Of a stretch of DNA of 36,356 bases, positions 13,507-30,471 are shown piece after piece. Within the stretch, counting starts at the first letter, position 1. Each line of letters opens with the position of its first letter. Both the position numbers and the translations under genes were made by a program. The notes beneath the pieces are model-generated. The model had not been told where the DNA came from and did not search any database. It was given only the letters and a program-made list of their open reading frames with translations. The stretch lies in assembly GCA_002771215.1 (NCBI GenBank), contig PCRM01000034.1, forward strand, positions 1-36,356. The letters run 5' to 3'. The DNA comes from Candidatus Nealsonbacteria bacterium CG23_combo_of_CG06-09_8_20_14_all_40_13 (GTDB lineage: Bacteria > Patescibacteriota > UBA1384 > UBA12157_A > GCA-002773005).

Positions 13507-13685
13507 AAGCGAGCCTGTAGCCCCGAAGGGGCACAGCTGATTCCGTACCAAAGCAAATCTTGTCGCAGATAAAACTCGAAGGAGCGAGCCGCTAGCCCAT
13601 AAAGTTGGCTAGCAACCGCACAGGAAGACCGAGCAGCAGCGAGGGCGCTCCTGTAAAGGGGACAACTTTTGGGCGCGGCGAGCGA
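13507..13685. repeat. Dispersed structured element, copy 1
   Basis: Shares AGCGAGCCGCTAG, ACAGGA, CGCTCCTGTA and GGCGCGGCGAGCGA with 27297-27390, and AAGCGAGCCTG and AAGCAAA..TGTCGCAGA with 30258-30423. Confidence 0.75.
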
Positions 13686-13689
13686 TATC

Positions 13690-14316
13690 TTATTTATAAA
13701 ACAACAACCCTTTTTTAACTTTTTCCCAAAGCGTCGGCTGGGGAGGCACTACCACCCTTAAGTTAACATCCTGTCCTTCTTGAAGTACCGGATAAAGTGT
13801 AACATACATGCTTTCTGCTTTTTTAACAGAAGCCACAAAACCTTTTGTTTCTCCAGCCGGCGCGCCTCTGGCCGCAAGCCACCTATCCGCCACCGCCGGC
13901 CCGCCGTTGTAGGCGGCTAAAAGATAGTCAGTATTGCCGCCATATTTGTCAGACAAATTTTTCAAATACCAACTGCCATAGCGAATGTTTGTCTCGGGGT
14001 CATAAAGCATATTGATTTGAAAATGCTCGCCCAATTTTCCAGCTATGGAACGGCCGGTGCCAGGCATAATCTGCATCAAGCCGATGGCACCCGCGCGCGA
14101 AACCGAATCGGAATTGTAGCGCGATTCCTGAAAAATAACTGCTGCAATCAAAGTTGCGCGAATATTAAAACGCTTGGAATATTTTAAAATGTATTCGTCG
14201 TATTTCAGTGGATAAACCGCCTCTCCCCAAATTTGCGGAAAATAAAAATAAAAAATTAAACCCGTCACCAGCAGAAAACTAAAAATTATGCTAATTTTAA
14301 CTATTGTTTTTTTCAT
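13690..14316 (-). CDS. Lytic transglycosylase (SLT domain), membrane anchored
   Basis: AVIFQESRY, GAIGLMQIMP, NIRYGSWYL and AAYNGG motifs. Confidence 0.93.
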   Translation of the reverse strand: MKKTIVKISIIFSFLLVTGLIFYFYFPQIWGEAVYPLKYDEYILKYSKRFNIRATLIAAVIFQESRYNSDSVSRAGAIGLMQIMPGTGRSIAGKLGEHFQINMLYDPETNIRYGSWYLKNLSDKYGGNTDYLLAAYNGGPAVADRWLAARGAPAGETKGFVASVKKAESMYVTLYPVLQEGQDVNLRVVVPPQPTLWEKVKKGLLFYK

Positions 14317-14332
14317 AAATTTACTTTAAAAT

Positions 14333-15106
14333 CTACCCTGCTAACCAGCCACCGTCAATAACCACCGTTGAACCAGTCATATAAGAAGAGGAATCCGAAG
14401 CCAAAAACAAGACTAATTCTGATACTTCTTCAGGTTTACCTATTCGATGAAGGGGTACTCTAGCCAATAGCCCCTCCAACGTTTTAGGGTCTTTTTTGAC
14501 TGGTTCAATCATTGGTGTCTCAATCATGCCTGGGGCAATGGCATTAACTCGAATTTTAAAAGGGGCAAGTTCAACCGCCAGCGCTTCAGTTAAAGCGACT
14601 ATTCCACCTTTGGAGGCGCAATAATGGGCAATATTTGGAAAACCAATCCCCTGCTGCCCCATGGCCACTGAAGAAATATTGACAATTACTCCTCCACCTT
14701 TTTCCTTCATTACTAAAGCCGCTGCCTGGGAACAGAAAAATTGACCTTTAAGATTGATATCTAATGTTCTATCCCATTCTTCCTCTGTTAATTGTAAAAA
14801 TGGCTTAAACTGCGCTATCCCAGCGTTGTTGATTAAAATATCCAAACGACCAAATTGTTCAACAATTTTTTTAACGACTTGTTCGACGTCCGTTTTTTTA
14901 GAAACATCTAATTTTAGAGCAAGTGCTTGGCCACCTTGTGATTTAATTTCGTCAGCCACTTTTTGGCAATCAGCCAAATCAATATCAGTGACAATTACCT
15001 TAACTCCTTTTTTGGCTAAAGCTAAAACATGGGTTCTACCCATACCTCTTCTTGCCCCAGTAATTAGAGCCACTTTACCTTTTAAATCTTCCATTTTTAC
15101 CTCCAT
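14333..15106 (-). CDS. SDR family oxidoreductase (FabG-like)
   Basis: TGARRGMG, NNAG, YCASK and NAIAPG motifs. Confidence 0.93.
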   Translation of the reverse strand: MEVKMEDLKGKVALITGARRGMGRTHVLALAKKGVKVIVTDIDLADCQKVADEIKSQGGQALALKLDVSKKTDVEQVVKKIVEQFGRLDILINNAGIAQFKPFLQLTEEEWDRTLDINLKGQFFCSQAAALVMKEKGGGVIVNISSVAMGQQGIGFPNIAHYCASKGGIVALTEALAVELAPFKIRVNAIAPGMIETPMIEPVKKDPKTLEGLLARVPLHRIGKPEEVSELVLFLASDSSSYMTGSTVVIDGGWLAG

Positions 15107-15138
15107 AGTTTTTAACTTTTACTTTTTAATTTTGACCC

Positions 15139-15183
15139 ATTCGACTTCATCCAGGGTCAATCCTGAGTTTATCGAAGGATTGA
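15139..15183. repeat. REP-like TTCGAC...CTGAG...TCGAAG element (relatives at 16095-16139 and 16246-16290)
   Basis: TTCGACttcatccagggTCAATCCTGAGtttaTCGAAGGATTGA matches TTCGACtcaactcagcaTCAATCCTGAGcttgcCGAATGGATTGA. Confidence 0.65.
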
Positions 15184-15198
15184 GTTTAGCGAAGCGCT

Positions 15199-15243
15199 TG
15201 GTGCCGGGGGCGGGAGTCGAACCCACACGAGGTTTTACCCTCA
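15199..15243 (-). pseudogene. 3' half of a tRNA-Leu (att-like remnant)
   Basis: GAGGGTAAAACCTC variable arm, GTGGGTTCGACTCCCGC T arm and CCCCGGCACCA; no D arm or anticodon arm upstream. Confidence 0.85.
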
Positions 15244-15306
15244 TTTGGTAGCTGTTTCTGATTAAATTTTATCAGATTTTTCTTAAGAGAGCAAATATTT
15301 TTGGAT

Positions 15307-15341
15307 AAAAAAAGGGCCCCGGCGCGCAAGCGCTCGGGGCC
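15307..15341 (-). terminator. Intrinsic terminator of the 15398..15868 gene
   Basis: GGCCCCG...CGGGGCC stem with a T7 tract on the minus strand. Confidence 0.8.
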
Positions 15342-15397
15342 TGTACCAGAGGGGGATTTCCGTTTGGAAGTCCCTTTGGGTTTGGAGGGTAAGAGGG

Positions 15398-15868
15398 TTA
15401 GTCGCAGATGGCCTCAATTTCGGCCTTTTCTAGACGGCAGGTAGAGACCCAACGATCGTTCTCCCACTTTTTCTGGTAGTAGAGCTCATGGGTCACTTCA
15501 CCGATCTTAATCTTAGCCATCTCCGGCTCCCACATACATTGGTTGTTATAGAGCCAACATTGACTTTCGATCTTGATGTACTTCCCATCGACTTGACCAA
15601 CCCATGTCTTGATGTGGACGATACGGGCGACCTCGTCGTGGAGAACACACCTATATTCTTCCTCCAACATTTCTTCGTACATCTCGAACATCGAGCGAGC
15701 TTGAAAAACAGGCTCAGCAACAATGTCGGTCTGTGCCCATTGAAGGTCACAACCGAAGATTTGTCGAAGAGCTTCCCGAGTCATCTCCATCGGAAACATG
15801 ACCGAGTAGCCGAGCGAGAACTTCTGCTTGGAATCCCTTTCCTGTTTTGCCTCTAACATAGTTTTCAT
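15398..15868 (-). CDS. Hypothetical protein (islet cargo)
   Basis: 156 aa ORF with CAGGAG RBS, own promoter and terminator; no family recognised. Confidence 0.7.
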   Translation of the reverse strand: MKTMLEAKQERDSKQKFSLGYSVMFPMEMTREALRQIFGCDLQWAQTDIVAEPVFQARSMFEMYEEMLEEEYRCVLHDEVARIVHIKTWVGQVDGKYIKIESQCWLYNNQCMWEPEMAKIKIGEVTHELYYQKKWENDRWVSTCRLEKAEIEAICD

Positions 15869-16062
15869 CTCCTGTTTCAGGGTTCGCCCAAGGTTATCCT
15901 CGAGCGGCTACCGTCTCGGTAGCGATTTAGCAAAGAAAATAGATTTCTCAACCAAGTCGCTACCGAGAAAAACATAAAAACGCTACCCACGAAGAGATTA
16001 GGAGGATATTTTAAGGTTCAAACCTGTTTCAAGCGAAAACTATCTTTACTGAAAACTAATTA

Positions 16063-16091
16063 ATTATAGCACAGAAAAGAGGGTTTGTCAA
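16063..16091 (-). promoter_or_regulatory. Consensus sigma70 promoter
   Basis: TTGACA (16091-16086)-17-TATAAT (16068-16063) with TG extension. Confidence 0.8.
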
Positions 16092-16342
16092 TAGTTCGAC
16101 ATCGCTCACTATTGACACTGACCAAAGTCGAAGTGTCAAGTATAAATTGGGTAAATTCAAGAAAAAAAACAGAAATTCCCAAAAATTTCTGCAACAAATG
16201 ATATGAAAAAATTTTCTTTTACTAATTCAAACCGCCAATTGATGCTTCGACTCAACTCAGCATCAATCCTGAGCTTGCCGAATGGATTGATTTTTTGTAG
16301 TTTTTACTTTTTAACTTTTACTTTTTACTTTAGCGAAGCGCT

Positions 16343-16431
16343 TGGTGCCGGGGGTGGGATTCGAACCCACACGGAGTTTTACCTCCAACGGGTTTTAAGC
16401 CCGTATCGTCTACCAATTCCGACACCCCGGC
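16343..16431 (-). tRNA. tRNA-Leu(TAA)
   Basis: GCCGGGG acceptor, ACGGG-CT TAA AA-CCCGT anticodon arm, long variable arm, GGTTCGAATCC, CCA. Confidence 0.97.
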
Positions 16432-17388
16432 TCAAATTACCTGCCATTTACCTTCTTTATAATTTAACCTTCCCTCAACTGTAAATCCAGCTGCCTTTTT
16501 ATGCCCGCCGCCGCCGAAAATCTTGGCAATTTGCGAAATATCAATATTATCATCCTCAGTCCGCAACGAGGCGCGCACTTTGCCATCGGCAGTTTCTGAA
16601 AAAAATATGGCTATTTTAGTATCGGCAATACTGCCGATTAAATTGACAATACCGGCCATATCAATTTCGCAAGCACGGCAATCTTGCAAATCTTTCCGCG
16701 TTATAACTGAAGTGCACAAACCGTATTGTTGATTTTGCCATATTCGAGATAAAGCGATTCCCCACAATTTCAAGGCAGTAACTGATTTATTCACAGATAT
16801 GTTTTTAGCAATCTGCTTTAAATTGGCGCCATACGACAAAAGTTTACCCGCAATATCTAAAACTTTTTCACTCGTATTGGAATGTTTAAATCCGCCAGTA
16901 TCTGTGTATAATCCGGTTAAAAGGCACGTGGCCAAATTTTTATCAAAGTCAATATTTATTTCTTGAAAAAAATCAAACAGTATTTCTGCCGTTGAAGATG
17001 CTTCCTGACAAACAATATTCAAATTGGCAATTTTGTGAAGGTCATTTTTAGGATGATGGTCAATGTTTAAAAGATGTCTTTTATGTTTGGCGTACTGCAA
17101 AAATCTTTGAGGAAAGCCTGTTCTTTTCAAATCGCCGCAGTCTAAAACAATAACCAAATCATAGTCGCCCTGCAAAAAGTCATTTTGAATTTTGCAAGCG
17201 TTGGGTAGGAAAGAAAAAAGTGCGGGAATCTCGTCTTTGCCAACAATATCAGCGTCTTTGCCCATTTTTTTCAAAACAGCATATAAAGCAAGAGATGAAG
17301 CAATAGTGTCACCATCGGGGCTTTTATGGATGACAAGAAGAATTTTTTCGCCAGAGGTAAGATATTTTAGGATTTTGTCTGCGGGCAT
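16432..17388 (-). CDS. nrnA: DHH/DHHA1 bifunctional oligoribonuclease/PAP phosphatase
   Basis: HKSPDGD, VLDC, IDHH, TDTGGF, SLR and GGGGHKKAAG motifs. Confidence 0.93.
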   Translation of the reverse strand: MPADKILKYLTSGEKILLVIHKSPDGDTIASSLALYAVLKKMGKDADIVGKDEIPALFSFLPNACKIQNDFLQGDYDLVIVLDCGDLKRTGFPQRFLQYAKHKRHLLNIDHHPKNDLHKIANLNIVCQEASSTAEILFDFFQEINIDFDKNLATCLLTGLYTDTGGFKHSNTSEKVLDIAGKLLSYGANLKQIAKNISVNKSVTALKLWGIALSRIWQNQQYGLCTSVITRKDLQDCRACEIDMAGIVNLIGSIADTKIAIFFSETADGKVRASLRTEDDNIDISQIAKIFGGGGHKKAAGFTVEGRLNYKEGKWQVI

Positions 17389-17858
17389 AAAGCAATAACC
17401 TTTCTCTCCTCCTCTTGCGGCAAATCGTTTTTGGCAATTTTAAAAACAGCTTCTTTGGGCAAACTAACACCTTCCATCTTACAAAATTCGTCAAGGGCGC
17501 CCAAATCCATTGGAATAACAATTTTGGGGTCAATTTGGTTAATCACCTCAATCGCCAACTTAGGAGATAAAGCTTTGTCTTTGCCAACTGGCACCATTAA
17601 AATATCCACACCGTTAATCTTGTCAACTTCAGAATCTGTTAAGGTGCGCGAGAGTTGCCCCAAATGTGCCACGGTCACTTCTTCTAAATTAAAAATGTAA
17701 ATACCGTCGTTTAAACCATCAATGAAAATGCCGGCAATCTCATATTCGCCCGGGCCAGCAAGCTCAACATCATTGACACGGGTTGGCTCACCCGTGTAAA
17801 CTGTGGCTTTTTTGTCTTTAATTTCGAAATTATCTTTACCTAAGTATTTAATCTGCAT
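17367..17858 (-). CDS. Shortened MBL-fold (Lactamase_B_3-like) protein
   Basis: MQIKYLG, GPGEYEIAG, HLG, DILMVPVG and PKIVIPM motifs; no HxHxDH motif. Confidence 0.75.
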   Translation of the reverse strand: MQIKYLGKDNFEIKDKKATVYTGEPTRVNDVELAGPGEYEIAGIFIDGLNDGIYIFNLEEVTVAHLGQLSRTLTDSEVDKINGVDILMVPVGKDKALSPKLAIEVINQIDPKIVIPMDLGALDEFCKMEGVSLPKEAVFKIAKNDLPQEEERKVIALCPQTKS

Positions 17859-17878
17859 AACTTTAAGCTTATTTTAGC

Positions 17879-17910
17879 AAAAAAAGAAGGCCGGCGCAAG
17901 TGCGCCGGCC
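17879..17910 (-). terminator. Intrinsic terminator downstream of the PHP gene
   Basis: GGCCGGCGC/GCGCCGGCC stem followed by TTCTTTTTTT on the minus strand. Confidence 0.75.
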
Positions 17911-17923
17911 GGAAAAATGAGAA

Positions 17924-18031
17924 TAAACTACTCCGCAGCAAGCTGCGGAGTATCCCCAAAGGGGCGAGTTTGTTTTTAAATAGGCTTCATCCTCGCAGCA
18001 AGCTACAAGGTATTCAGCCTCTTAAAAATAA
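17924..18031. mobile_element. ~105-bp two-palindrome element resembling joined IS200/IS605-family ends (PATE-like), copy 1
   Basis: TACTCCGCAGC AA GCTGCGGAGTA and CCTCGCAGCAAGCTACAAGG hairpins; homologous to 26811-26915 including TAAACTACTC and GCCTCTT.AAAATAA termini. Confidence 0.7.
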
Positions 18032-18032
18032 C

Positions 18033-19661
18033 TCATTTGAAGCCATCGCCGATGTTTTCATAGGTGACTGTTTGAACCAACTCGCCATCAAGCCAAAATT
18101 TAATTCGCCAAGTGCCCGATACCCAGTCAAAATCAAAACCAGATGGTTTGAAGTATATCACTTCCGAAAATTGTTCGTCGTAGGAGTTAATATATTTTGA
18201 ATCATCCGTTGAACAACTCACACTACCGTCAGGACGAATAAAGACGGTTTTCCAAGTGTGAAGCCCGGGAGACAAATTGGCAAAATATAAATAAGCATAA
18301 ACGCAACTTTGCCAATAAAAACGATTAGTGTAATATTTCGGTCTGTCTTTTGGATAACTTTCATCCAGCCATTGATAAGGATCATTTTGCCCAAGAACAA
18401 TATTCACTGATGGTTCATTTGGCGCCCCCTCATTCTCATTCAAGCTTTCCTCCAGCGCTTTCCTCTCTTCCTCTGACATTTCATCAACGTAAATTTGGAT
18501 TGGTGAGGTAATCAGCTGGCCTGGGCTGTAGATGACATAGTTGTAAGCGCCGGGCTTTACTTGATCGGTGAAGGAGTATTCGACCTCACGAGTAACCAAG
18601 GGTATGACTGGAATGGTTCTGCGCGAATCAGGCACTTCAACGCCATCGCGGTACAAAACAATGGTCTTGGAATCATTAATTGGTCGCGGATAGACCAGAC
18701 GGAAATTAAAATCTACCTTTTGGTAGACGGTATTGATGCTTGCCTCATCGGTGCCAATTTGATAGGATAGTCCTTCCAATTGTCCTTCCCAAATTGAGGC
18801 GTAAGTATTTCCGCGAGAAATTGCCCAAGTCAAAAAGCCAGTAGCCAATTTATCTGCGTTAATGAAAGTAAAATAACCATCAGTGTCTACCCCATGACTG
18901 TCGTTGCCGCAGGTTACCCCGACAAGAAGGTTATTTTGGAGAAATTTCATATACAAATCGAGGTCTTTTTGTTCGTCAGAGCTGCCATTGAATGTTTCAA
19001 TAGTAGCGACGGGTGCAAACTCAGGGTAACTCTCGACCAACTCTTCCGGATTAGTCAATATTTTTTCTTTATACTTATCAAAATCAAAAGGCGGATTCCA
19101 CAAGGAAGGATGGGCTAAAACAATCACCGGGATATAATCTTTGGAAAAATCAAAATCCACAGAGGACTCTAAAGCTTTCGCCCGTTTAGCAACTTGATAT
19201 GAAAACATAATCTCATCGTAGCCGGCTTCCGGCAAGTACCAGTATTTACTATTTTCCCCTTGCTCCTTATCCGCAGCCAATACTAAAGCATGACACTTTA
19301 ACGAAGTATCTTTAAGGGGAAATTCGAAACCACCAATCATTAGCGGTGAACCCTTGCCAGAAAGCCAGTAGCAGCGTGAGATATAATCGTCGTAAGGATT
19401 ATTATTGTCATGAAGATGACCTTTGGCCACGCCATGCCAGCCAACCCCTTGCCCAAAACAATCAGCGTGTTCGGTCATAAAAATAAACTTCACATTATGC
19501 TTTTGAGCACCTTGCCAAATCGAATCAAGGTTATAAGTTCCGTCAGAATATTTGGAGTGAAAATGGACGATGCCTTTGAACCACTCCGCCGATGCCGCCT
19601 TTGACAGCACACCCACTAGTACCAATACGCCAAATACAACCAAAACTACTCTTTTCTTCAA
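18033..19661 (-). CDS. Secreted PHP-domain metallohydrolase with C-terminal Ig-like domains
   Basis: Signal peptide, HFHSKYSDG, TEH, AHP, ETFN and GNDSH motifs; C-terminal beta-rich GTWRIKFWLDG region. Confidence 0.8.
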   Translation of the reverse strand: MKKRVVLVVFGVLVLVGVLSKAASAEWFKGIVHFHSKYSDGTYNLDSIWQGAQKHNVKFIFMTEHADCFGQGVGWHGVAKGHLHDNNNPYDDYISRCYWLSGKGSPLMIGGFEFPLKDTSLKCHALVLAADKEQGENSKYWYLPEAGYDEIMFSYQVAKRAKALESSVDFDFSKDYIPVIVLAHPSLWNPPFDFDKYKEKILTNPEELVESYPEFAPVATIETFNGSSDEQKDLDLYMKFLQNNLLVGVTCGNDSHGVDTDGYFTFINADKLATGFLTWAISRGNTYASIWEGQLEGLSYQIGTDEASINTVYQKVDFNFRLVYPRPINDSKTIVLYRDGVEVPDSRRTIPVIPLVTREVEYSFTDQVKPGAYNYVIYSPGQLITSPIQIYVDEMSEEERKALEESLNENEGAPNEPSVNIVLGQNDPYQWLDESYPKDRPKYYTNRFYWQSCVYAYLYFANLSPGLHTWKTVFIRPDGSVSCSTDDSKYINSYDEQFSEVIYFKPSGFDFDWVSGTWRIKFWLDGELVQTVTYENIGDGFK

Positions 19662-19703
19662 TGCTCCCTGCCTCCTTTTTTGATTGGAAAGATTGTTAAT
19701 GAA

Positions 19704-20819
19704 CTACTTTGTTTTCTTCACCTTCTTTTTTATTTTAGTTTTAACCTTCGCCTGGGACAGCGTTATTTTATGACTACTTAAGTCAACTGATTCAATTTGG
19801 AAATCATATTGTTCGTCAAGCTGAAAAATTTCGCTTGGTTCTTTAATGCCATTGCCCATTTTTTCCAAAGGACAAAGAGCGTCTAAGCTTTCATCAATTT
19901 TCACAAACACGCCAAAAGATGTTAATTTGGTTACTTCTCCAGAAACCTTATCGCCAATTTTATATTTGGCCATTTTTTTCGCCCAAGGATCGGGCAAAAG
20001 ACGTTTGATTGACAGAAAAACCCTGCCTTTTTCAACTCCGATAATCATCACTTCAATTTCTTGCCCCACTTTGAACATATTTCTCAAATTAGATACTTTT
20101 TCCCAGGCAATTTCCGAAATATGCACTAAACCTTCAAATTCGCCTAAATTGATAAAAAGGCCAAAATCGGCGATGCCAGAAATAATCCCCTTTATGACAG
20201 TGTTAATTTTTAGTTGTTGGACTTTCTCGCTCTGCGTTTGCAAGGTTGCTTCTTTTTCAGAAAAAATCAATTTATTGGAACGTTTGTTATATGACAAAAT
20301 TTTTACTTGCAAGGTTTGGTTAAGCAATCCAGACAGCCGGCTGATAATTTCACCCTCTGAATGGGCGCCGCGCGGAAAGTGGCTGTAGGCAAGTTGGGAA
20401 ACTGGAGTGAATCCTTCCAATCCGCCGTAATCTACCACTAAGCCCCCGCGGGTAATTTTGGTCACATAAACACTAACCGGCTGACCTTCCTTGAATTTTT
20501 CTTCCAAAGTTCTAAAAACTCGTTCTCTATCTGCCCGGCGCAAAGAAAGCACCACATTGCCCTCATTATTTTCCATTGATAAAACGTAAGCCAAAACTTT
20601 ATCACCCTCTTTCATCTCTGGCACTAAAGTTGAAAATTCTCTCTGCGGAATAACCCCCATGGTCAAACCCGCCACATCCACTAAAATTTTGTTTCTGGAA
20701 ATATCCAAAATTTTTACTTCAATAACATCGCCTCCGCGAAAAGGGATTAAAGAAGGACCCATCTCTTCTACCAGTTGGGCCATGGATGTGTTATCTACTT
20801 GTTTGGTTGTTTTTTTCAT
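19704..20819 (-). CDS. rpsA: 30S ribosomal protein S1 (four S1 domains)
   Basis: Repeated S1 motifs: GFTPVSQL, DFGLFI..EGLVHISEI, FGVFV. Confidence 0.9.
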   Translation of the reverse strand: MKKTTKQVDNTSMAQLVEEMGPSLIPFRGGDVIEVKILDISRNKILVDVAGLTMGVIPQREFSTLVPEMKEGDKVLAYVLSMENNEGNVVLSLRRADRERVFRTLEEKFKEGQPVSVYVTKITRGGLVVDYGGLEGFTPVSQLAYSHFPRGAHSEGEIISRLSGLLNQTLQVKILSYNKRSNKLIFSEKEATLQTQSEKVQQLKINTVIKGIISGIADFGLFINLGEFEGLVHISEIAWEKVSNLRNMFKVGQEIEVMIIGVEKGRVFLSIKRLLPDPWAKKMAKYKIGDKVSGEVTKLTSFGVFVKIDESLDALCPLEKMGNGIKEPSEIFQLDEQYDFQIESVDLSSHKITLSQAKVKTKIKKKVKKTK

Positions 20820-20834
20820 TTTTTTTCTTAATTT

Positions 20835-22365: not shown

Positions 22366-22374
22366 AGTTCAGTA

Positions 22375-23392: not shown

Positions 23393-23398
23393 AAAATG

Positions 23399-23427: not shown

Positions 23428-23527
23428 GGTTTTTAGACAAATTTAAAAGTTTCATGCTAAAATTAACCTATAATAATCAAATGCAAAATCTGCAGCAAAC
23501 GAGATTCATTACCAAAAAAGCTATTTT

Positions 23528-25252
23528 ATGAATAATCTTCAAATCCGCAATTTTGTCATTATTTCTCATATCGACCACGGCAAATCAACGCTGGCCGACC
23601 GGCTTTTGGAGTTGACCAACACTGTGCCTAAAGACAAAATGCGCGCCCAATATTTAGATATGATGGATTTGGAACGCGAAAGGGGAGTAACAATTAAAAT
23701 GGCGCCAGTGAGAATGATTTGGAAAGATTCAATCCTTAACTTGATTGACACTCCGGGCCACGTTGATTTCGCCTACGAAGTTTCCAGAGCTTTAGCTGCT
23801 GTTGAAGGCGCTTTGCTTTTAGTTGACGCCACGGCCGGCATTCAAGCACAGACGCTTTTCAATTTGGAAAAAGCGCAAAAACAAAATTTAAAAATCATTC
23901 CCATAATCAATAAAATTGACTCGCCGGCCGCGCAAATCGAAAAAACACAAGAAGAACTGGTAAGTTTGGGCTTTCAAAAAGAGGAAATTTTGCAAATTTC
24001 CGCCAAAACAGGACAAAATGTCCAAAATGTTTTAAAAGCCATTATTGAAAGAATTCCTCCTCCAATTGAAAATTTACAAAATCCATTAAAGGCCTTAATT
24101 TTTGACTTGCTGTATGACCAATATAAGGGCGTTATTGCCTACGTGCGGGTATTTGACGGGACAATTGCCAAAAACGAAAAAATTAAATTTTTGATAGGGG
24201 AGACAGAAGGGGAGATTTTAGAACTTGGTTATTTTAAGCCGCAGTTTGCTACAGCTTCTAAAATATCCGCCGGCGAGATCGGCTACCTCAAAACCGGCAT
24301 TAAAGAAATTTCAAAAATAATGGTAGGGGACACTATCACGCTCGCCTCTATCGCCCACCCTGAGCAAGATTTAAAAATTGCCGGCTATCAGCAGCCAAAA
24401 CCAATGGTTTTTGCCAGCATTTACCCCATTGAGGGTGAAAACCATAAAAAATTAGCTGACGCGCTTGGGAAATTAAAATTAAATGATTACTCTCTCTCTT
24501 TTAATTTTGAACGGTCAAAAGCATTAGGGGCTGGCTTTCGCTGCGGTTTTTTGGGCTTGTTTCACTTAGAAATTACCAAAGAAAGATTAGAAAGAGAATC
24601 TGCCTTAGAGCTGATAGTTACTTCTCCGACGGTCGACATTCAAGTAACCGAGCACGGCTATCGCGAACCGTATGTTGATTTGGAAATTATCACCCCTCAA
24701 CAATATTTAGGTCAAGCAATGGAGCTAGCGCAATCTCACCGCGGACAATATAAAGAGATAAAATATCTTGGAGACCGGGTAATTGTGCTATACGAGAACC
24801 CGCTGTCTGAAATTATTATTGGTTTTTACGACCAGCTAAAAAATTTATCCGAGGGCTATGCCTCAATGAATTATCAGTTTTCAGGTTATAGAGATGCCGA
24901 TCTAGTTCAGTTGGATATTTTAATTGCCGGCGAAAAAGTTGAGCCGATGACCCAAATTGTTGCCCGCTCAAAATCAGAATCCACCAGCAGAAATATAGTG
25001 AAGAAATTAAAAGATTTAGTGCCAAGGCAGTTATACAAAGTTTCCCTGCAGGCGGCAATTGGTGCAAAAATCGTCGCCCGTGAAGATATTCCCGCCATGC
25101 GCAAAGATGTTACCGCGCCTTTGTATGGCGGTGATGTAACCAGGAAAAGAAAATTATTAGAAAAACAGAAAAAAGGCAAAAAACGTCTCAAGCACTTGGG
25201 CAAAGTGGACATCCCCAGCGATTTATTTTTAGAGCTTTTGAAAATTGATTAA
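23528..25252 (+). CDS. lepA: Elongation factor 4 (LepA)
   Basis: HIDHGKSTLADRLL, DTPGHVDF, GFRCGFLGLFH and YGGDVTRKRKLLEKQKKGKKR motifs. Confidence 0.98.
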   Translation: MNNLQIRNFVIISHIDHGKSTLADRLLELTNTVPKDKMRAQYLDMMDLERERGVTIKMAPVRMIWKDSILNLIDTPGHVDFAYEVSRALAAVEGALLLVDATAGIQAQTLFNLEKAQKQNLKIIPIINKIDSPAAQIEKTQEELVSLGFQKEEILQISAKTGQNVQNVLKAIIERIPPPIENLQNPLKALIFDLLYDQYKGVIAYVRVFDGTIAKNEKIKFLIGETEGEILELGYFKPQFATASKISAGEIGYLKTGIKEISKIMVGDTITLASIAHPEQDLKIAGYQQPKPMVFASIYPIEGENHKKLADALGKLKLNDYSLSFNFERSKALGAGFRCGFLGLFHLEITKERLERESALELIVTSPTVDIQVTEHGYREPYVDLEIITPQQYLGQAMELAQSHRGQYKEIKYLGDRVIVLYENPLSEIIIGFYDQLKNLSEGYASMNYQFSGYRDADLVQLDILIAGEKVEPMTQIVARSKSESTSRNIVKKLKDLVPRQLYKVSLQAAIGAKIVAREDIPAMRKDVTAPLYGGDVTRKRKLLEKQKKGKKRLKHLGKVDIPSDLFLELLKID

Positions 25253-25287
25253 AAAAGCTCTAATTTAATCATTTTTCTGCTATTTGC

Positions 25288-25316
25288 TTGACAAAAGTAT
25301 GGAAATATGGTATCAT
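25288..25316 (+). promoter_or_regulatory. sigma70 promoter
   Basis: TTGACA-17-TATCAT with TG extension. Confidence 0.7.
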
Positions 25317-25368
25317 AATCTAGTTCTTGTTCTTTGAGAACATATTCTTATCAAAGGGGGTACCAAAA

Positions 25369-26436
25369 TTGGCAGTACCAGTATCTGTTGTGAAGCTCGT
25401 AACACACGAAAATCCACATCTGGATGAAATCGTGGCCTTCCTTCTCTTACGTCTGTTCGGGGAGAAAATGTTCCCGGGCGTCGCGCAGGCTCCAGTCGAG
25501 TTTTGTAGGACTGGAGGCGAATGCCCAAATGGCAAAACTGCGGATGAATACGAAAAAGAGGGAGTTCTGTTTATTGGCACAGGCCGCGGCCGATTCGACG
25601 AGCATGGCAAGAAGCGAGTAGGCGAAGCTCTGTGTGCTGCAACACTGGTTGCAGAGAAACTGGACATTAGAGAAAATCCTGCCTTACGCCTTTTGCTCAA
25701 AGAAACCCTCGACAACGACGCGTACGCCTCTGCCGGTCTTACCGATCTTGCATCGGTAATAAAAGCGATGTACCTCCAAGGGATAAATCCCTTAGAGGTT
25801 ATAAACTGGGCGACAAGAGGTATTGAAGCTCTATATGCCCAGCAACTGCGCTACCAAGAGGCAGTTGCAGAACTTATTGAGGCAATCGTAGACGAAGTCG
25901 AGGCTGGTGGTAAGATCTACAAAGTTGTCAGTATTGTTTCTGACAACCCTGAGATCCAAAGGGCAGCCAGATCTAAGGATTTAAATTCTGCGGTTGTCAT
26001 CCAACAAAAAAAGACTGGCCACATCCAAATTTTTACCAATCAAGGCCAGATCCCGAATATCAGAGACATTGTCAGAATAGTCCGGATTGCAGAGTCGCAA
26101 GCAAAAGGACGGATGACGCGCCTTCCTTGGAAAGAGCTAGAAGTTACGGAAAGAATTTCCGAGATTCCCGAATGGTACTACATGGTACCAGGGGAAAACC
26201 TACTCAATGGTAGCTTGACAGCGACGGACGTCCCACCCACGAACCTGAGCTTTAATCGGGTAAGAGAGTTGGTCAAATTGGCTCTTTCTCACCAATTCGA
26301 CCCAGACCACGTTGAACAATGTTTATTGGGCAATTGCACACACAAAGACAAACCCTGTGTACTCTTTCTCTGGGGCTTCAGTTGGTGCAGAAAGATCCGC
26401 TACCAACAAGCACAACAACCTTCAGAGGAGACCTAA
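25369..26436 (+). CDS. MYG1/DHH-like phosphoesterase with a Cys-rich C-terminus (probable start TTG 25369)
   Basis: VTHENPHLDE, GRGRFDEH and CAATLV resemble the MYG1 TH..H.DE and GG.FDHH motifs; GGGGG RBS before 25369. Confidence 0.6.
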   Translation: MAVPVSVVKLVTHENPHLDEIVAFLLLRLFGEKMFPGVAQAPVEFCRTGGECPNGKTADEYEKEGVLFIGTGRGRFDEHGKKRVGEALCAATLVAEKLDIRENPALRLLLKETLDNDAYASAGLTDLASVIKAMYLQGINPLEVINWATRGIEALYAQQLRYQEAVAELIEAIVDEVEAGGKIYKVVSIVSDNPEIQRAARSKDLNSAVVIQQKKTGHIQIFTNQGQIPNIRDIVRIVRIAESQAKGRMTRLPWKELEVTERISEIPEWYYMVPGENLLNGSLTATDVPPTNLSFNRVRELVKLALSHQFDPDHVEQCLLGNCTHKDKPCVLFLWGFSWCRKIRYQQAQQPSEET

Positions 26437-26445
26437 CTTAACACT

Positions 26446-26482
26446 GAGTCATTCCGTCGCCTGACGGGGTGGCTCTTTTTTT
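26446..26482 (+). terminator. Intrinsic terminator
   Basis: GAGTCATTCCGTC/GACGGGGTGGCTC stem plus T7. Confidence 0.8.
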
Positions 26483-26507
26483 ATCTAGAAATCTAATTTT
26501 TTCCGGT

Positions 26508-26789
26508 TTAGCTCGCAAGTTCGTCGACTTCTTTTTTGCCGGCGGCCAGTTCCTTAATCTGCTCCATATCGCTCTTTAGAAGCATTGCTTCAAATTCACC
26601 CACATGAGTTTTTTCTTCTTTGGCAATATCTGAAAGCAATTTTTTGATATTGCCATTGTCTGTCATCGCCGCCATCTGTTCGTATTGGTTAACCGCGTCC
26701 AGCTCAGCAATCATCCCCGCCCGCAAAATCTCGTTATCAACGTCGTCTTTTTTCACTTTTGATAAATCAATGGGGGTTTGTGACGCCAT
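26508..26789 (-). CDS. Small ferritin-like protein (encapsulated-ferritin/rubrerythrin type)
   Basis: AELDAVNQYEQ and IAKEEKTHVGEF di-iron motifs; AGGAGG RBS. Confidence 0.85.
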   Translation of the reverse strand: MASQTPIDLSKVKKDDVDNEILRAGMIAELDAVNQYEQMAAMTDNGNIKKLLSDIAKEEKTHVGEFEAMLLKSDMEQIKELAAGKKEVDELAS

Positions 26790-26810
26790 ATCGACCTCCT
26801 AAAATAATTA

Positions 26811-26915
26811 TAAACTACTCTGCGGCTTGCCGCAGAGTATCCTACGAAAAGTTTTTTTCCAAATAGGCCTTCGTCCCTGTGGCAAGCCACAGGGTATTCG
26901 GCCTCTTGAAAATAA
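26811..26915. mobile_element. PATE-like two-palindrome element, copy 2
   Basis: TACTCTGCGGC TT GCCGCAGAGTA and CCCTGTGGC AA GCCACAGGG; compensatory changes relative to the copy at 17924. Confidence 0.7.
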
Positions 26916-27021
26916 ATGATAAATGATGAATTATAAATGTGAAATCTCAAAAAATCCTATTTCTGAATTTTTACTAATGACTGAAGATCAATGACTAATG
27001 ACTATCCACCAGCTGGCGGAT

Positions 27022-27108
27022 TGGTGCCGGGAAGAGGACTCGAACCTCCACGCCCTTTCGGGCACGTGCACCTCAAGCACGTCTGTATACCAATTCCAGC
27101 ACCCCGGC
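27022..27108 (-). tRNA. tRNA-Leu(GAG)
   Basis: CGTGC-TT GAG GT-GCACG anticodon arm, GCCC GAAA GGGC variable arm, CCA. Confidence 0.97.
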
Positions 27109-27296
27109 GCGTATACTCCACCTTCATTAAAATTACGGCGGATTTTGTATTTACTTAAGGAATTTAATACTCAACAATTCCGCCACCTGCCCACAACACC
27201 TAAGCAAATTCCTCCTGCTTGCGATGGCAGGCGGGCCTGCCCGCTATCAAAATTATACCTTAAAATAGAACTTTTATCAACTTTAATTTCAGAGAA

Positions 27297-27390
27297 AGCG
27301 AGCCGCTAGACAATAAAATTTATTTGCAAACGCCACAGGAAGGCCTTGACCGCTCCTGTAGAGCGAGAAATTTTTTGGCGCGGCGAGCGA
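27297..27390. repeat. Dispersed structured element, copy 2
   Basis: AGCGAGCCGCTAG...ACAGGA...CGCTCCTGTA...GGCGCGGCGAGCGA. Confidence 0.75.
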
Positions 27391-27430
27391 ATATTTTAAC
27401 TTTTGCGTTTTGCGTTTTTAGTTTTAACTT

Positions 27431-28267
27431 TTATTTCCCCCACTCCTTCACCGCCTCCGCATAAATTTCCGGCGTACCGACATCATACCAACGTCCTTCA
27501 AAAAGATAGCCGTAAAGTTGGCCGCTTTTGGCCAATTTTGGCAATAGATCATTTTCCAACATCGAAAAACCCTTTTTCGGCACCATCTCAATTACTTTAG
27601 GTGAGAGTATTTGAATGCCGGAAAAAACCACGTGAGAAAGAGTATGAGCTTTATGCGGTTTTTCGGTAAAATCAACCACTTTGTCGCCGTGCAGACACAC
27701 CACGCCATACTCTGATGGTTTAGCCACTGAGGTCAAGGCGATTGAGGTTAAACCGCCGTGCGCGCTGTGAAAATCAATAAAATCTGTCAAGTTAATATCG
27801 GCCAAAACATCACCATAAAGCAGCAAAAATGGCTCGTTGCCCAATAAATTTTTAGCCAGTCGCAACGGCGCGGCCGTGCCTTCCTCTTTCAGCTCTTCAA
27901 TATAAACAATGGAAATGCCAAATTTTGCCCCATCGCCAAAATGATTTTTTATTTTGTCGCCCAGCGCACCGACTAAAATGATTATCTCTCGGATATTGTG
28001 TTCGCGCAGTTTATCAATAATATGCTCTAAAATCGGTTTACCTTTGACCGGCAGCATTGTTTTGGGCATTTCATAGGTGAACGGACGCATTTTTACGCCG
28101 GCGCCGCCGGCTAAAATAAAGGCCTTTTTGATTTTCGGCGCTAAAGTTTTTGACAGTAAATATTCAATCGCGTGAGAACGGTTGCGAATTCTATCGCCGT
28201 CAATAGTTTGATCCAACGCACGGATTACATCTTTTTTTAACGTAATTGTTAGTCGTTGTCTGGTCAT
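27431..28267 (-). CDS. Sugar-phosphate nucleotidyltransferase with an N-terminal ribbon-helix-helix domain
   Basis: RQRLTITL..D....NRSHAIE (RHH), then ILAGGAG..MRP.T...PK, YGD, EKP and WYDVGTPE. Confidence 0.88.
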   Translation of the reverse strand: MTRQRLTITLKKDVIRALDQTIDGDRIRNRSHAIEYLLSKTLAPKIKKAFILAGGAGVKMRPFTYEMPKTMLPVKGKPILEHIIDKLREHNIREIIILVGALGDKIKNHFGDGAKFGISIVYIEELKEEGTAAPLRLAKNLLGNEPFLLLYGDVLADINLTDFIDFHSAHGGLTSIALTSVAKPSEYGVVCLHGDKVVDFTEKPHKAHTLSHVVFSGIQILSPKVIEMVPKKGFSMLENDLLPKLAKSGQLYGYLFEGRWYDVGTPEIYAEAVKEWGK

Positions 28268-28292
28268 AATTACCTTTTAATCTGTCAAACAG

Positions 28293-28335
28293 AGTATAAG
28301 TCCAAATTAACAGGTTGTCAAGCTCAGCTTGACAA
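28293..28335 (-). promoter_or_regulatory. Promoter overlapped by a perfect 21-bp palindrome
   Basis: TTGACA-17-TATACT (minus); TTGTCAAGCT-c-AGCTTGACAA at 28315-28335. Confidence 0.7.
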
Positions 28336-28473
28336 TTATCCCGCTTAGCGTGATGTCAATATTTTTACAATTATCTTGACAGATTTATCTTTATATGTTA
28401 TTATAAATTTCGTCAATAAAGAATTTCTTTATTGAAATTACCCGCTCATTCACAATTTAATAGGAGGATAAAA

Positions 28474-28722
28474 ATGTTTACCGTACAACATCTTCGGCGA
28501 ATAAGCGCCGCCGCCCAAAGATGTTCTGGTGGCGCCGCAAGAGTTGAAGTTTGTCGGCTACCGGTCAGAGATGACCAATGTGAGTTTTGCGAAGGACCAT
28601 TGGCCAAAATTACACTTTTTTATCTTTCTTCAGACGAACATCAACATCATTATGATGATGTTGATGAAAGAATCACTTGCGCCGACACTAGCTGCCTCGC
28701 CTTTATGAATGACAATGTCTAA
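28474..28722 (+). CDS. Small Cys/His-rich hypothetical protein (82 aa)
   Basis: AGGAGG RBS, promoter TTGACA-17-TATTAT at 28376, terminator at 28734-28762; CEFC and CADTSC. Confidence 0.65.
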   Translation: MFTVQHLRRISAAAQRCSGGAARVEVCRLPVRDDQCEFCEGPLAKITLFYLSSDEHQHHYDDVDERITCADTSCLAFMNDNV

Positions 28723-28733
28723 CTCTCCCCCTC

Positions 28734-28762
28734 GCCGCCCAAATAACTTGGGCGGTTTTTTT
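28734..28762 (+). terminator. Intrinsic terminator
   Basis: CCGCCCAA/TTGGGCGG stem plus T7. Confidence 0.8.
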
Positions 28763-28814
28763 AAATAAAAAAGAGCAGTTTTATGACATGCTCGGGTCGA
28801 AGGATGAAACACTT

Positions 28815-29126
28815 TTAGTCCTCTACTATTTCGCAAACCCCCTGTGCAAACAATAACCAATCACTATCAGCAATAATTCGGTTTCTCTTCCACCAATCGG
28901 CGGCTTCCGGGCTGTTTTTGCCTAAGATACCGATTGCCTCTTCTTTTTTTATCCTATAAACTTCAATGTCGAGGTTTGCACGCTTACCACTCACCACTTC
29001 GATTACGGTGCAAAATGTGGTAATAGGAGTCTCATCTACAGGAAGAACTAATCCCACCCATTCTTCTCGCACCCATTCTGGCGCTTCCCCTGGCGGAACA
29101 GCAACAATCTTGATCTTCATTGCCAT
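28815..29126 (-). CDS. Hypothetical protein (PPGEAPEWVREEWVGL motif)
   Basis: AAGGAG RBS; third gene of the Gam operon. Confidence 0.75.
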   Translation of the reverse strand: MAMKIKIVAVPPGEAPEWVREEWVGLVLPVDETPITTFCTVIEVVSGKRANLDIEVYRIKKEEAIGILGKNSPEAADWWKRNRIIADSDWLLFAQGVCEIVED

Positions 29127-29154
29127 CTTGTCTCCTTTCAGCTTGTAAAATCAA

Positions 29155-29712
29155 TTATTCGCCGCTTGGCGTTTTTTTCAGTTTGTCGGTGTTCTTGGAG
29201 ATAGTGACGCGAAGATCGGCGGGCCGAACTTCAAAGAATTCATCCTGCTTGATCTTGAAACCAGCTACCCCTATTGCCACCTCTTGCTCTCTCAGGATTG
29301 CTTGTTTGTCAACTTCTTCCTTGGTCCTGACAAAACGCTCCAATCCCATCTGTTTCAAGGCGGCAATCACTAATTTTTCAGCCTTGGTGAGTACCACCGA
29401 GGCCGGTTTTAGCCGCCACCGAAACCAGCCGGTCGGCAACTCAACAGTTTTTTTCTTTCCTCTGTCGGTCAGCTCATCACGGTGACTTGCGGCGAAAGCA
29501 TAAAGTACTTCAACCAGTCGCGAAAGCTCCTGTTCGTGCGGTAATGACTGACCTGTCGCTTGCGCCTTTAGCTGTTCAACTTGGTTATTAAAAACAAGTT
29601 GAATTTCATCAATTTCCCTTTTCTTCTCGCCAATTTGCCGCACAACTTTGGTAGCCTGCTCAAGTGTCTGCGGTATCTCGATAACTTCCCGCTTAAATGT
29701 CGGTTTCTGCAC
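29155..29712 (-). CDS. Mu Gam-like host-nuclease inhibitor (DNA end-binding)
   Basis: Coiled-coil N-half, KKTVELPTG.FRWR, FVRTKEEVDKQAI and GFKIKQDEFFEV motifs; AGGAG RBS. Confidence 0.85.
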   Translation of the reverse strand: MQKPTFKREVIEIPQTLEQATKVVRQIGEKKREIDEIQLVFNNQVEQLKAQATGQSLPHEQELSRLVEVLYAFAASHRDELTDRGKKKTVELPTGWFRWRLKPASVVLTKAEKLVIAALKQMGLERFVRTKEEVDKQAILREQEVAIGVAGFKIKQDEFFEVRPADLRVTISKNTDKLKKTPSGE

Positions 29713-29920
29713 TTTTACTCATCTCCTCTAAGTTATTCGGAGACGCAGAAGTTCTGCTCTCCACATGAAACATTGGGCTCTGATAACCACATCCTTCCTT
29801 ACGGCAGTTCATGACAAAGAGATTGGAAGTACTTGACACTCCCTTATATTCCATCATCAAACCGCATTGTGGGCACTTCATCTCAGGAACCCGCCCCTCC
29901 GGAAAGTTGATTTTGCTCAT
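29693..29920 (-). CDS. Small zinc-ribbon protein (75 aa; start ATG 29920)
   Basis: CPQCG...CRKEGC; AAGGAG RBS; promoter TTGACT-17-TATGAT at 30000-29972. Confidence 0.65.
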   Translation of the reverse strand: MSKINFPEGRVPEMKCPQCGLMMEYKGVSSTSNLFVMNCRKEGCGYQSPMFHVESRTSASPNNLEEMSKSAETDI

Positions 29921-30031
29921 CTTCGCTAGTCTCCTTTTCAAGGTGCTTTTTGCCAATTCTGTGGCATTTGTATCATAGATGAAGTTTATGAAAGAGTCAA
30001 GAAAAAAGAGCATTATGTTGCGTTTGAAGTT

Positions 30032-30118
30032 TGGTGCCGAAGGTGGGAGTCGAACCCACAAGCCCTTATGGGCATCAGCTCCTGGGGCTGACGTGTTTAC
30101 CAATTTCACCACTCCGGC
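30032..30118 (-). tRNA. tRNA-Leu(CAG) with C33
   Basis: TCAGC-CC CAG GA-GCTGA anticodon arm, long variable arm, GGTTCGACTCC, CCA. Confidence 0.93.
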
Positions 30119-30120
30119 AA

Positions 30121-30471
30121 ATTACTTTTTCACCTTCTTTTCTTTAATATAACAAATATCTTTTATAATATTTCGACAAAAAGTTAGCGAGGCGCTAGCC
30201 AAAATTCTAATTTAAGTGAGGTTTTTGGCTAAGAAAAGTGTCTCGGAGCATGTTAAAAAGCGAGCCTGCAGCCGAAGCAAACCGTGTCGCAGACTAGCCC
30301 AGGATTATCTTTTAGGATGGAGAATAGCTTTTAATGGCTAGCCGAGACACGAGCAACACCCGACGAAAACCAATTTTTTTCATACATTACGGCGATTGCG
30401 TGTTTGCGTGGCGCAGGCGAGCGTTAAAGATGGAAAAATTATTACTTTTTCACTCTCTTTTCTTTAATATA
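30121..30471. mobile_element. Insertion containing structured element copy 3 (30258-30423), flanked by a 31-bp direct repeat of the host gene 3' end
   Basis: 30121-30151 and 30441-30471 match at 29 of 31 positions (YIKEKKVKK* versus YIKEKRVKK*). Confidence 0.7.

Follow-up and report, generated by a model that had tools for sequence, protein, structure and literature searches.

Several classes of short palindromic repeats that act through folding are known in bacteria. The REP, BIME and REPIN elements, which go together with RAYT (Y1) proteins, are extragenic palindromes found behind genes in a polar arrangement and are thought to act as folded single strands, and the attC sites of integrons are strand-specific, folded single-strand hairpins located directly behind the stop codon of an ORF. 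The Rickettsia palindromic elements (RPE) are hairpin repeats of ~100-150 bp in a reduced genome, which occur between genes and in frame in housekeeping genes and for which no transposase is known (PMC10969869). The Correia, ERIC and pneumococcal BOX, RUP and SPRITE MITEs are described as non-autonomous, forming stable hairpins in transcripts, inserting into one another and including terminator-like forms (PMC10969869).

The stretch of DNA analyzed here (the window; 36,356 nt, contig PCRM01000034.1 of Candidatus Nealsonbacteria bacterium CG23_combo_of_CG06-09_8_20_14_all_40_13) contains three sequences that are probably copies of mobile DNA repeats found in ultra-small (CPR-type) bacteria. These hairpin-forming repeats, small and non-autonomous, would make up two related families, and we read them as being of the REP, RPE or MITE kind. 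Like the RPE, they form hairpins, lie between genes as well as in frame in housekeeping genes, and no transposase was found for them; unlike the RPE, they have a conserved asymmetric core that is biased to one strand, take a polar position after stop codons and occur over many ultra-small lineages; no sequence relation to the RPE is apparent. With REP, BIME and REPIN they share polar palindromes behind genes, and their genome also has a RAYT-like gene, but they are 3-5 times longer, have a conserved multi-helix core and neither flank nor co-occur with Y1 genes. As with the Correia, ERIC, BOX, RUP and SPRITE MITEs, the elements are non-autonomous and nested, would form stable hairpins in transcripts and may include terminator-like forms, whereas they have no parent IS in their own genome, their unpaired core is conserved, no target duplication is visible and, in other genomes, their outer stems are copy-specific. 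The strand-specific fold and the position directly behind a stop codon recall integron attC sites, from which the elements differ in that their ends AGCGAGCC/GGCGAGCG depart from the attC end consensus, they are dispersed rather than arrayed, and their core sequence is conserved.

The first-pass annotation of the window had described one three-copy element with a modular build. Three copies are indeed present on the plus strand (13508-13684 and the two further copies in Table 1), each starting with AGCGAGCC and ending with GGCGAGCG; their ends pair as GC-GA-GCC/GGC-GA-GC with a tandem G.A, and the inner helices ACAGGA/TCCTGT (copies 1 and 2) and CTAGCC/GGCTAG and CGTGTC/GACACG (copy 3) are found as described. 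However, the difference between GCCGC/GCGGC and GCCTGC/GCAGGC, which had been taken as a compensatory change, is not one within a single family, as the cores of copies 2 and 3 differ and place them in separate families, hereafter type A and type B. The composite nature of copy 1 was borne out, its second part being a full element of the copy-2 type by model match, while its first part resembles the 5′ part of copy 3, a likeness that nhmmer picks up weakly with the type B profile (E 0.37) and that is otherwise seen by reading over the first ~35 nt. A sister composite of copy 1 lies at C45:5105-5266 in the same genome.

Table 1. Repeat elements of the window, with supporting evidence and neighboring genes.
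Element	Coordinates	Strand	Evidence	Neighbors
Copy 1, first part: type B 5′ remnant that forms a small hairpin by itself and is fused to the second part	13508..13582	+	AGCGAGCC start; weak nhmmer match	
Copy 1, second part: complete type A, 102 nt	13583..13684	+	model R1 112.7 bits, R2 100.2 bits	3′ end 5 nt from the stop of an SLT-domain gene (13690-14316, -; Pfam); element upstream of alaS on the minus strand
Copy 2: complete type A, 93 nt	27297..27389	+	model R1 98.9 bits	stop of a nucleotidyl-transferase gene (27431-28267, -; Pfam) / promoter-like site and tRNA-Leu(gag) (27022-27108, -)
Copy 3: complete type B, 165 nt	30259..30423	+	model R3 111.1 bits; fold; subtype common to C9:33169-33338	stop of a solute-binding-protein gene (30442-31866, -; Pfam) / tRNA-Leu(cag) (30032-30118, -)

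Type A is a rod of ~95 nt that is interrupted by one asymmetric internal loop and contains an inner hairpin, and type B, of ~140-165 nt, forms a three-way junction. In the 654,411-base genome of the window, the covariance-model searches that the first-pass annotation had proposed gave 8 matches to type A and 7 to type B, dispersed over 11 contigs, so the recurrence of the three window copies is more than chance. Among 151 genomes of the class, the models found type A in 10, with up to 6 copies each, and type B in 27, with up to 7 copies each. Beyond the class, type B was confirmed in 13 of the 80 pattern matches listed from an all-species collection, that is at least 13, with titles that include Minisyncoccia, Saccharibacteria, Berkelbacteria and Omnitrophota, while none of 45 pattern matches in viral contigs was a true type B element that would indicate carriage by phages. 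A match to a described Rfam family had been named as counter-evidence to novelty; with Rfam 15, only tRNAs reach the gathering threshold in the window, and permissive scans of the three copies returned chance-level hits (E 0.003-9.6) to unrelated eukaryotic and enterobacterial families, far below the cut-offs. Literature searches on palindromic, miniature inverted-repeat or structured-RNA repeats of CPR/Patescibacteria found no description of such repeats. Types A and B are two related, uncatalogued families of small hairpin-forming repeats of ultra-small groundwater bacteria.

Both types keep their fold through sequence change: in alignments that had been fitted to the models, 90.5% of cells are paired in type A (64.8% in shuffles), with 26 of 28 pairs changing on both sides, and 93.9% in type B (65.1% in shuffles), with 33 of 35. 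The structure had been assigned to one strand only, and the same strand is favored by the ratio of G.U to A.C (46:23 in type A and 47:8 in type B) and by folding energies, being the lower in energy in 22/22 type B and 15/20 type A copies of other genomes. Summed over the 15 copies of the window's genome, the mRNA strand folds at -708 kcal/mol versus -790 kcal/mol for the other strand, and DNA energy parameters give the same preference. The strand on which the conserved core has its better fold is the one antisense to the neighboring genes. Because of the gene-strand bias of the contigs, this better-folding strand is probably the leading-strand template; IS200/IS605-type elements use the other strand.

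The feature common to types A and B in this genome is the closing stem AGCGAGCC/GGCGAGCG with the tandem G.A. The tandem G.A is frequent (13/28 type B and 8/28 type A rows), but it does not define the element, since ordinary pairs take its place elsewhere. Closing stems of 9-16 bp, which are terminal inverted repeats, occur in all copies, and in other genomes the outer stems vary from copy to copy. True compensatory changes in the closing stem were found in the C10 copy and in the G049, G007 and C38:1647 copies, and the solitary word AGCGAGCG is not enriched (10 observed versus 7.3 expected); with the word not enriched and the compensatory changes favoring pairing, the end hexamer as a target duplication was rejected.

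The proposal of a modular, non-autonomous element is supported by the absence of an enclosed ORF, by nesting, by presence and absence among congeners, and by five in-frame insertions into housekeeping genes elsewhere. Five of the seven type A copies of genome G038 were compared with its congener G020 (4 loci), and four of them, L040:862-974 with an exact junction and those in L038, L039 and L030, are absent there, while at the site of the fifth, L040:1501-1587, G020 has 253 unaligned bases. Likewise, a type B copy of G137 is absent in both G135 and G125, whereas the G110 and G093 sites are too diverged for boundaries and the comparison of G008 with G029 ends at a contig end. In-frame type A insertions occur in tsaD and valS of G007 and in ychF of G108, all three in sense orientation, and type B insertions in tgt (G011) and a class-V aminotransferase gene (G103), in antisense orientation. 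In the genome of the window, a type B core lies within a type A shell at C45:15578-15813, and a type A element lies within type B ends on C10. The repeats have thus spread by inserting between genes and into one another, and in other genomes also into genes, with the reading frame kept. Exact boundaries could be read at a single empty site (L040:862-974), the other sites being too diverged. No direct target-site duplication is seen there, and the outer arm repeats 10 nt of the flank in inverted form, which is predicted by no standard transposition scheme.

In the sampled population the copies are fixed, the contigs of four runs containing no joint that bypasses one. None of 18 related metagenome loci around the orthologous nucleotidyl-transferase gene was found to carry a copy, but their proteins are at most 59% identical to the neighboring gene product (69% for one 77-residue fragment) and are therefore unusable for defining an empty site. 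As no close relative of this genome was available, mobility is shown for family members elsewhere rather than for the three window copies.

The placement of the elements is polar. The window copies lie behind minus-strand stop codons, as first noticed, their ends being 5, 41 and 18 nt from the stops of the ORFs at 13690, 27431 and 30442; at 12 of the 14 loci in this genome, the 3′ end of the element faces the stop codon of a convergent gene, and 10 of 22 type B loci elsewhere are 0-32 nt from such a stop. Most surviving copies are thus found directly after a stop codon, with one and the same polarity.

This placement could suggest that the elements serve mainly on the mRNA strand, acting as large intrinsic terminators or as 3′-end stabilizing hairpins of the upstream gene, like REP or SPRITE, which we consider very unlikely. 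The copies lie 1-41 nt past stop codons. By reading, the hairpin is directly followed on the mRNA strand by four or more T in a row at 4 of 14 loci, and at a fifth after two bases, and copy 2 falls precisely in the interval from a stop codon to the promoter-like site that precedes the next gene (27280-27252, minus strand, 11/12 matches, before tRNA-Leu(gag)). However, the mRNA strand folds less well in the summed energies and in every type B copy elsewhere, its T content behind the element is no higher than that of the other strand, ordinary compact terminators are present in the genome, and such a role is impossible for the copies inside genes. Another rival reading is an RNA function of the opposite, plus strand. 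The invariant unpaired blocks and the three-way junction are kept across several classes, and strongly conserved unpaired nucleotides together with such a junction are seen more typically in functional RNAs than in MITEs; the covariation of both types, the excess of G.U in type B, the uniformly greater stability of this strand in type B copies of other genomes and the sense orientation of the three type A in-gene copies point the same way. That the elements are first a structured non-coding RNA family (an antisense sRNA or ribozyme-like) with spread as a secondary property, mobile elements with an RNA-active core included, nevertheless appears rather unlikely, given that no promoter-like site was found upstream of the three window copies on the plus strand, the type B copies inside genes run antisense, congeners differ by gain and loss of copies, synteny is lacking in related loci, and no Rfam family matches. 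Moreover, the ~100 predicted hairpin loops comprise one GNRA, no UNCG and one CUUG loop, and the strand preference is the same with DNA parameters. No RNA run was found to contain this stretch of DNA.

Movement as folded DNA raises the question of the enzyme, for which the first-pass annotation had suggested an HUH-type substrate. Derivation from IS200/IS605-type elements (PATE- or REPIN-like), with a Y1 HUH transposase or RAYT moving the folded single-stranded DNA and cleaving one strand at an identical short word at either end, would fit the one-strand fold, the polar orientation and the same hexamer at both ends in direct order. Two Y1_Tnp proteins are also encoded in the genome, by an IS200-like gene (C38:32688-33104) and a RAYT-like gene (C37:268-915), and Y1_Tnp genes are common in the class. 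They are found in 79 of the 151 genomes, in 8 of the 10 with type A and in 15 of the 27 with type B, so without co-occurrence with the repeats, and G018, which is ~100% complete and has seven type B copies, contains no Y1 gene; for this reason a Y1 mover is not supported. In addition, the hairpins or inverted repeats that flank both resident Y1 genes are unrelated to the elements, an in-frame IS200-type insert in rmlC belongs to a different sequence family, the solitary end word lacks enrichment, and the compensatory changes indicate that the end words pair rather than merely repeat. Overall, such a derivation seems decidedly unlikely. A link to a reverse transcriptase was also rejected, as RVT_1 occurs in 3 of 5 copy-rich genomes and is lacking in G018 and G038, and the suggested search for an autonomous parent turned up neither split halves nor end pairs around an ORF in the genome of the window.

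Some individual RNA candidates were discarded as well. Type A was considered as SRP RNA because models RF00169 and RF01854 find none in this assembly, but it was ruled out by its eight copies and by the lack of SRP helix-8 features. Two short type B words are reminiscent of the HDV-like ribozyme, but by reading, its double pseudoknot is barred by the helix order and there is no partner for the would-be P2 strand. A riboswitch or leader was rejected with the downstream genes being unrelated (alaS, tRNA-Leu, an nrnA-like gene and a glycosyltransferase gene). Separately, the RNase P RNA of this genome is located at C46:35461-35865.

Returning to the preferred reading, mobile DNA repeats of two related families, we propose that the repeats would be handled as a folded single strand, with DNA somewhat likelier than RNA, by a factor supplied in trans, which would be neither a Y1/HUH transposase nor a reverse transcriptase in every host. 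Their place behind stop codons may reflect where very tight genomes tolerate insertion, or a targeting of hairpins, and some copies with a T-run on the mRNA strand may double as transcript-end hairpins. A bolder version, which we regard as fairly improbable, is that types A and B represent an undescribed superfamily of strand-specific structured mobile elements in many ultra-small lineages and perhaps beyond, the conserved core of which would be active as single-stranded DNA or RNA, either recruiting a host enzyme or catalyzing a step itself. The elements would spread without a Y1 transposase or reverse transcriptase of their own, and their outer stem would be built from the target by inverted flank copying or by insertion into existing hairpins.

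In practice, the repeats can mislead hunts for RNA motifs because their covariation is strong, matter for gene calling because ORFs get extended or interrupted, and can break assemblies. The 10-nt inverted flank copy at the one exact site provides a testable clue to the origin of the copy-specific outer stems. Despite the streamlining ascribed to ultra-small CPR genomes, ~15 elaborate, selfish-looking repeats are present in this one, and its relatives carry such repeats inside essential genes. A one-strand, multi-helix core kept across distant lineages is unexpected for ordinary miniature transposons and points to an undescribed route of recognition and movement.

The three look-alike elements of the window all start with AGCGAGCC, end with GGCGAGCG and occupy spacers between minus-strand genes, each behind a minus-strand stop, as the first-pass annotation had rightly observed. 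Reckoned from the stop codon of the preceding gene, copy 1 lies at 5 nt (SLT-domain gene; alaS follows), copy 2 at 41 nt (nucleotidyl-transferase gene; tRNA-Leu(gag) follows) and copy 3 at 18 nt (solute-binding-protein gene; tRNA-Leu(cag) follows). A phage Mu Gam-like protein gene (29155-29712; Pfam, E 4e-33) sits between the two tRNA-Leu loci. Contigs from four groundwater or aquifer runs contain the copies; those of three runs differ by 1 nt in length at 13670, where the G-run in the 3′ stem of copy 1 has one G more. As for a described family, Rfam over the window returned tRNAs only, and permissive scans of the copies gave nothing credible.

BLAST, nhmmer and covariance-model searches of the assembly (654,411 bases, 46 contigs, 39.8% G+C, rated 94% complete) separated two kinds of element, not one family: type A, of 93-103 nt, with 8 copies, and type B, of 140-170 nt, with 7 model matches. 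Copy 1 combines the 5′ remnant of a type B element with a complete type A, and C45:5105-5266 is a sister of this composite. Nesting occurs elsewhere as well, with a type B core within a type A outer stem at C45:15578-15813 (model match) and, by reading, a type A copy flanked by type B ends at C10; element fragments lie at C10:859-884 and C45:15514-15562. The autonomous parent anticipated as a copy enclosing an ORF was not found in this genome.

Elements in the window and in the genome (C numbers are contigs of the assembly; C11 is the window)
Element	Location	Strand	Remark
copy 1	C11:13508-13684	+	G+C-rich element, sequence inspection
copy 2	C11:27297-27389	+	G+C-rich element, sequence inspection
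copy 3	C11:30259-30423	+	G+C-rich element, sequence inspection
type A	C10:1928-2021		
type A	C11:13583-13684		within copy 1
type A	C11:27297-27389		copy 2
type A	C31:888-983		
type A	C34:2201-2300		
type A	C37:10567-10662		divergent copy
type A	C38:27886-27985		
type A	C45:5105-5207		
type B	C9		
type B	C11:30259-30423		copy 3
type B	C18		
type B	C38:1647-1788		
type B	C42		
type B	C46		
type B	C45:15578-15813		inner part

In type A, a long stem leads through an asymmetric internal loop to an inner hairpin, which in this genome is ACAGGA/UCCUGU. Type B is built around a three-way junction; its internal loops are rich in purines, and a hairpin carries a seven-base loop that is conserved. Covariation was seen in alignments of 28 sequences for each type (type A from 10 genomes), in which 26 of 28 type A pairs and 33 of 35 type B pairs change on both sides. 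Standard pairs fill 90.5% of the cells in type A and 93.9% in type B, against 64.8% and 65.1% in shuffles and 36-44% and 30-42% with partners slid; these alignments were fitted to the models, so that structure is favoured. The unpaired blocks are almost invariant between genomes (GCAANCG, GGAAG, CGCUCC and UAAAG in type A; GGGCAUGG and CGCUGGG in type B).

The tandem G.A of the closing stem, held to be the hallmark of the element, is present in 7/7 full type A copies of this genome (it is absent from the divergent C37 copy), in most type B copies, and again in other genomes, and is flanked by compensatory changes: C-G to G-C in the C10 copy, G-C to A-U in copies of two other genomes (G049 and G007), and C-G to U-A at C38:1647. 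However, GA stands opposite GA in only 13/28 type B and 8/28 type A rows, and other rows carry standard pairs at this position, such as GA facing UC. Therefore, although frequent and tolerated in the closing helix, the tandem G.A does not define the element; by reading, the 5′ word AGYGAG is more constant.

The suggestion that the fold forms on the strand antisense to the mRNA agrees with the evidence. G.U exceeds A.C in paired columns (46:23 in type A, 47:8 in type B), and, free of any alignment, folding energy is lower on this strand for 6/8 type A and 4/6 type B copies here and for 15/20 and 22/22 copies in other genomes, where the mean strand difference for type B is -11.2 kcal/mol. These results indicate that a single strand is read, as either RNA or DNA. 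DNA energy parameters prefer the same strand, and loops typical of stable RNAs are almost absent from the roughly 100 predicted hairpins (1 GNRA, 0 UNCG and 1 CUUG, with six GNA triloops).

Position just past a stop codon, said to be invariable, is a strong tendency: the element 3′ end faces the stop of a convergent gene 1-41 nt away at 12 of the 14 loci in this genome, the exceptions being C34 and C42 (P(≥12/14) = 0.0065 under random orientation, by our own arithmetic). In other genomes, 22 type B loci were classified: at 10 the 3′ end is separated by 0-32 nt from the end of a convergent ORF, 6 are sense and 24-78 nt upstream of a start, 2 lie within ORFs and 4 are uninformative; type A shows the same tendency elsewhere, with three sense intergenic cases. 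The contigs have a strong gene-strand bias and the elements occupy the minority strand, so transcription and replication polarity are inseparable. tRNA genes adjoin 4/14 loci.

A possible reading is that the elements serve as terminators on the mRNA strand. Copy 2 has a stop codon on one side and, on the other, a strong promoter-like site of the tRNA gene, and at least four T follow the mRNA-strand hairpin directly at 4/14 loci and after two bases at a fifth (by reading). However, the two sides of the element do not differ in T content, folding is weaker on the mRNA strand, and ordinary terminators exist in this genome; therefore, terminator use is at most secondary.

Further copies, sought beyond this genome, show a patchy, multi-copy distribution and were found in 10/151 (type A; 6 copies in G038, 4 in G054) and 27/151 (type B; up to seven copies) sampled genomes of the class, counts that are lower bounds because only 20-27 candidates per genome were scored under strict filters; family copies in G020, for instance, were found later by BLAST. 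A 19-letter type B core pattern, searched in one genome per species, matched at least 121 stretches, and 13 of 80 loci among the matches listed were true type B by model. Their record titles, as deposited, include Minisyncoccia, Saccharibacteria (two), Berkelbacteria, Omnitrophota (two, on one contig), four MAGs labelled only "bacterium", and single MAGs labelled Planctomycetia, Gammaproteobacteria and Eubacteriales.

Gain and loss were followed between G038 and G020, of the same genus, for five of seven G038 copies at four loci (L034 and L036 left out). The L040:862-974 copy is absent from G020 with an exact junction. The copies of L038 (12 nt there, 125 in G038) and L039 (76 vs 149) are absent too, and G020 is without a 769-nt stretch carrying an ORF and the L030 copy; at the fifth, L040:1501-1587, G020 has 253 unaligned bases. 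Additionally, a G137 type B copy is absent from G135 and G125, and a G110 copy seems absent from G093, where alignment is poor. In-frame copies occur within genes. Type A is inserted in sense orientation in ychF (G108) and in tsaD and valS (both G007), the two G007 proteins sharing one inserted peptide; type B is inserted in antisense orientation in tgt (G011) and in a class-V aminotransferase gene (G103). The evidence of mobility comes from family members in other genomes, the window copies having no close relative for comparison. The elements and the neighbouring nucleotidyl-transferase gene do not travel together, no copy being found at 18 metagenome loci around relatives of that gene. In G028 (L042, contig C92), TsaD bears a different peptide (EIRNPKSE...) in the same surface loop as the G007 copy, and ValS a peptide similar to that TsaD insert; this TsaD loop is a hot spot shared by several repeat families.

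The G020 sequence is continuous at the exact empty site, whereas G038 carries 124 more bases there. That site in G020 already contains the left outer arm of the inserted copy; the right outer arm is the reverse complement of this arm over 10 nt (flank, ATGCGCAGGG; insert, CCCTGCGCAT). This suggests, from one site, that at least once the outer stem would have arisen by inverted copying of the flank or been chosen by pairing with it. Flank-derived arms would also yield outer stems that are copy-specific yet complementary, as in G038 and most type B copies elsewhere. Alternatively, the empty site may be a deletion in G020 that left one arm behind.

As to the mover, a Y1 (HUH) transposase acting on folded single-stranded DNA had been proposed, and the distribution does not support it. 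Y1 genes occur in 79/151 class genomes, in 8/10 with type A and in 15/27 with type B; Y1 genes and reverse transcriptases are both missing from G018 (~100% complete, seven type B copies), and G038 also has no reverse transcriptase. The present genome encodes one IS200-like and one RAYT-like Y1 protein, no TnpB-type domain being found, and both genes are flanked by repeats other than types A and B. None of 45 viral-contig pattern matches was a true type B copy.

Other repeats were seen alongside. The inverted pair GGGGACGGTTCTC ... GAGAACCGTCCCC at window 1702-1841 shares its 13-mers with the flanks of the RAYT-like gene (C37:268-915) and is probably its REPIN-like partner repeat, separate from types A and B. 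The in-frame, G+C-rich IS200-type insert in rmlC (C9:34413-34982), with CCCCG...CGGGG hairpins like those by the resident IS200 copy, was rejected as a member, being a different sequence family. A third, terminator-like repeat (17914-17955, 26801-26842, inverted 5014-5045) has a 24-nt perfect hairpin, TACTC.GC.G...C.GC.GAGTA, then GTTTAT. The 3′ part of tRNA-Leu(taa) is duplicated (60 nt, 90% identical; 15180-15239 and 16324-16383) 1.1 kb from the intact gene, with an intervening 156-aa ORF giving only a sub-threshold Cas4/PD-(D/E)XK-like match; the region resembles a scar left by the integration of a small element. A palindromic repeat of ~130 nt in G008 (L060:682-839, contig C8) has matches at ten or more sites in G029, on either strand. 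Among structured RNAs of this genome, RNase P RNA lies at C46:35461-35865; SRP RNA (RF00169, RF01854) and 6S RNA (RF00013) were not found at E up to 1, and their genes may be unassembled, the assembly being 94% complete, or divergent.

The closest kinds are Rickettsia palindromic elements, REP/REPIN elements, and nesting or terminator-like MITEs; the first likewise make in-frame insertions in a reduced genome (PMC10969869). For CPR bacteria, our literature search turned up no paper describing repeats of this type. Types A and B probably belong to this palindromic mobile-repeat kind, and stand out within it by a conserved one-strand multi-helix core and a wide spread.
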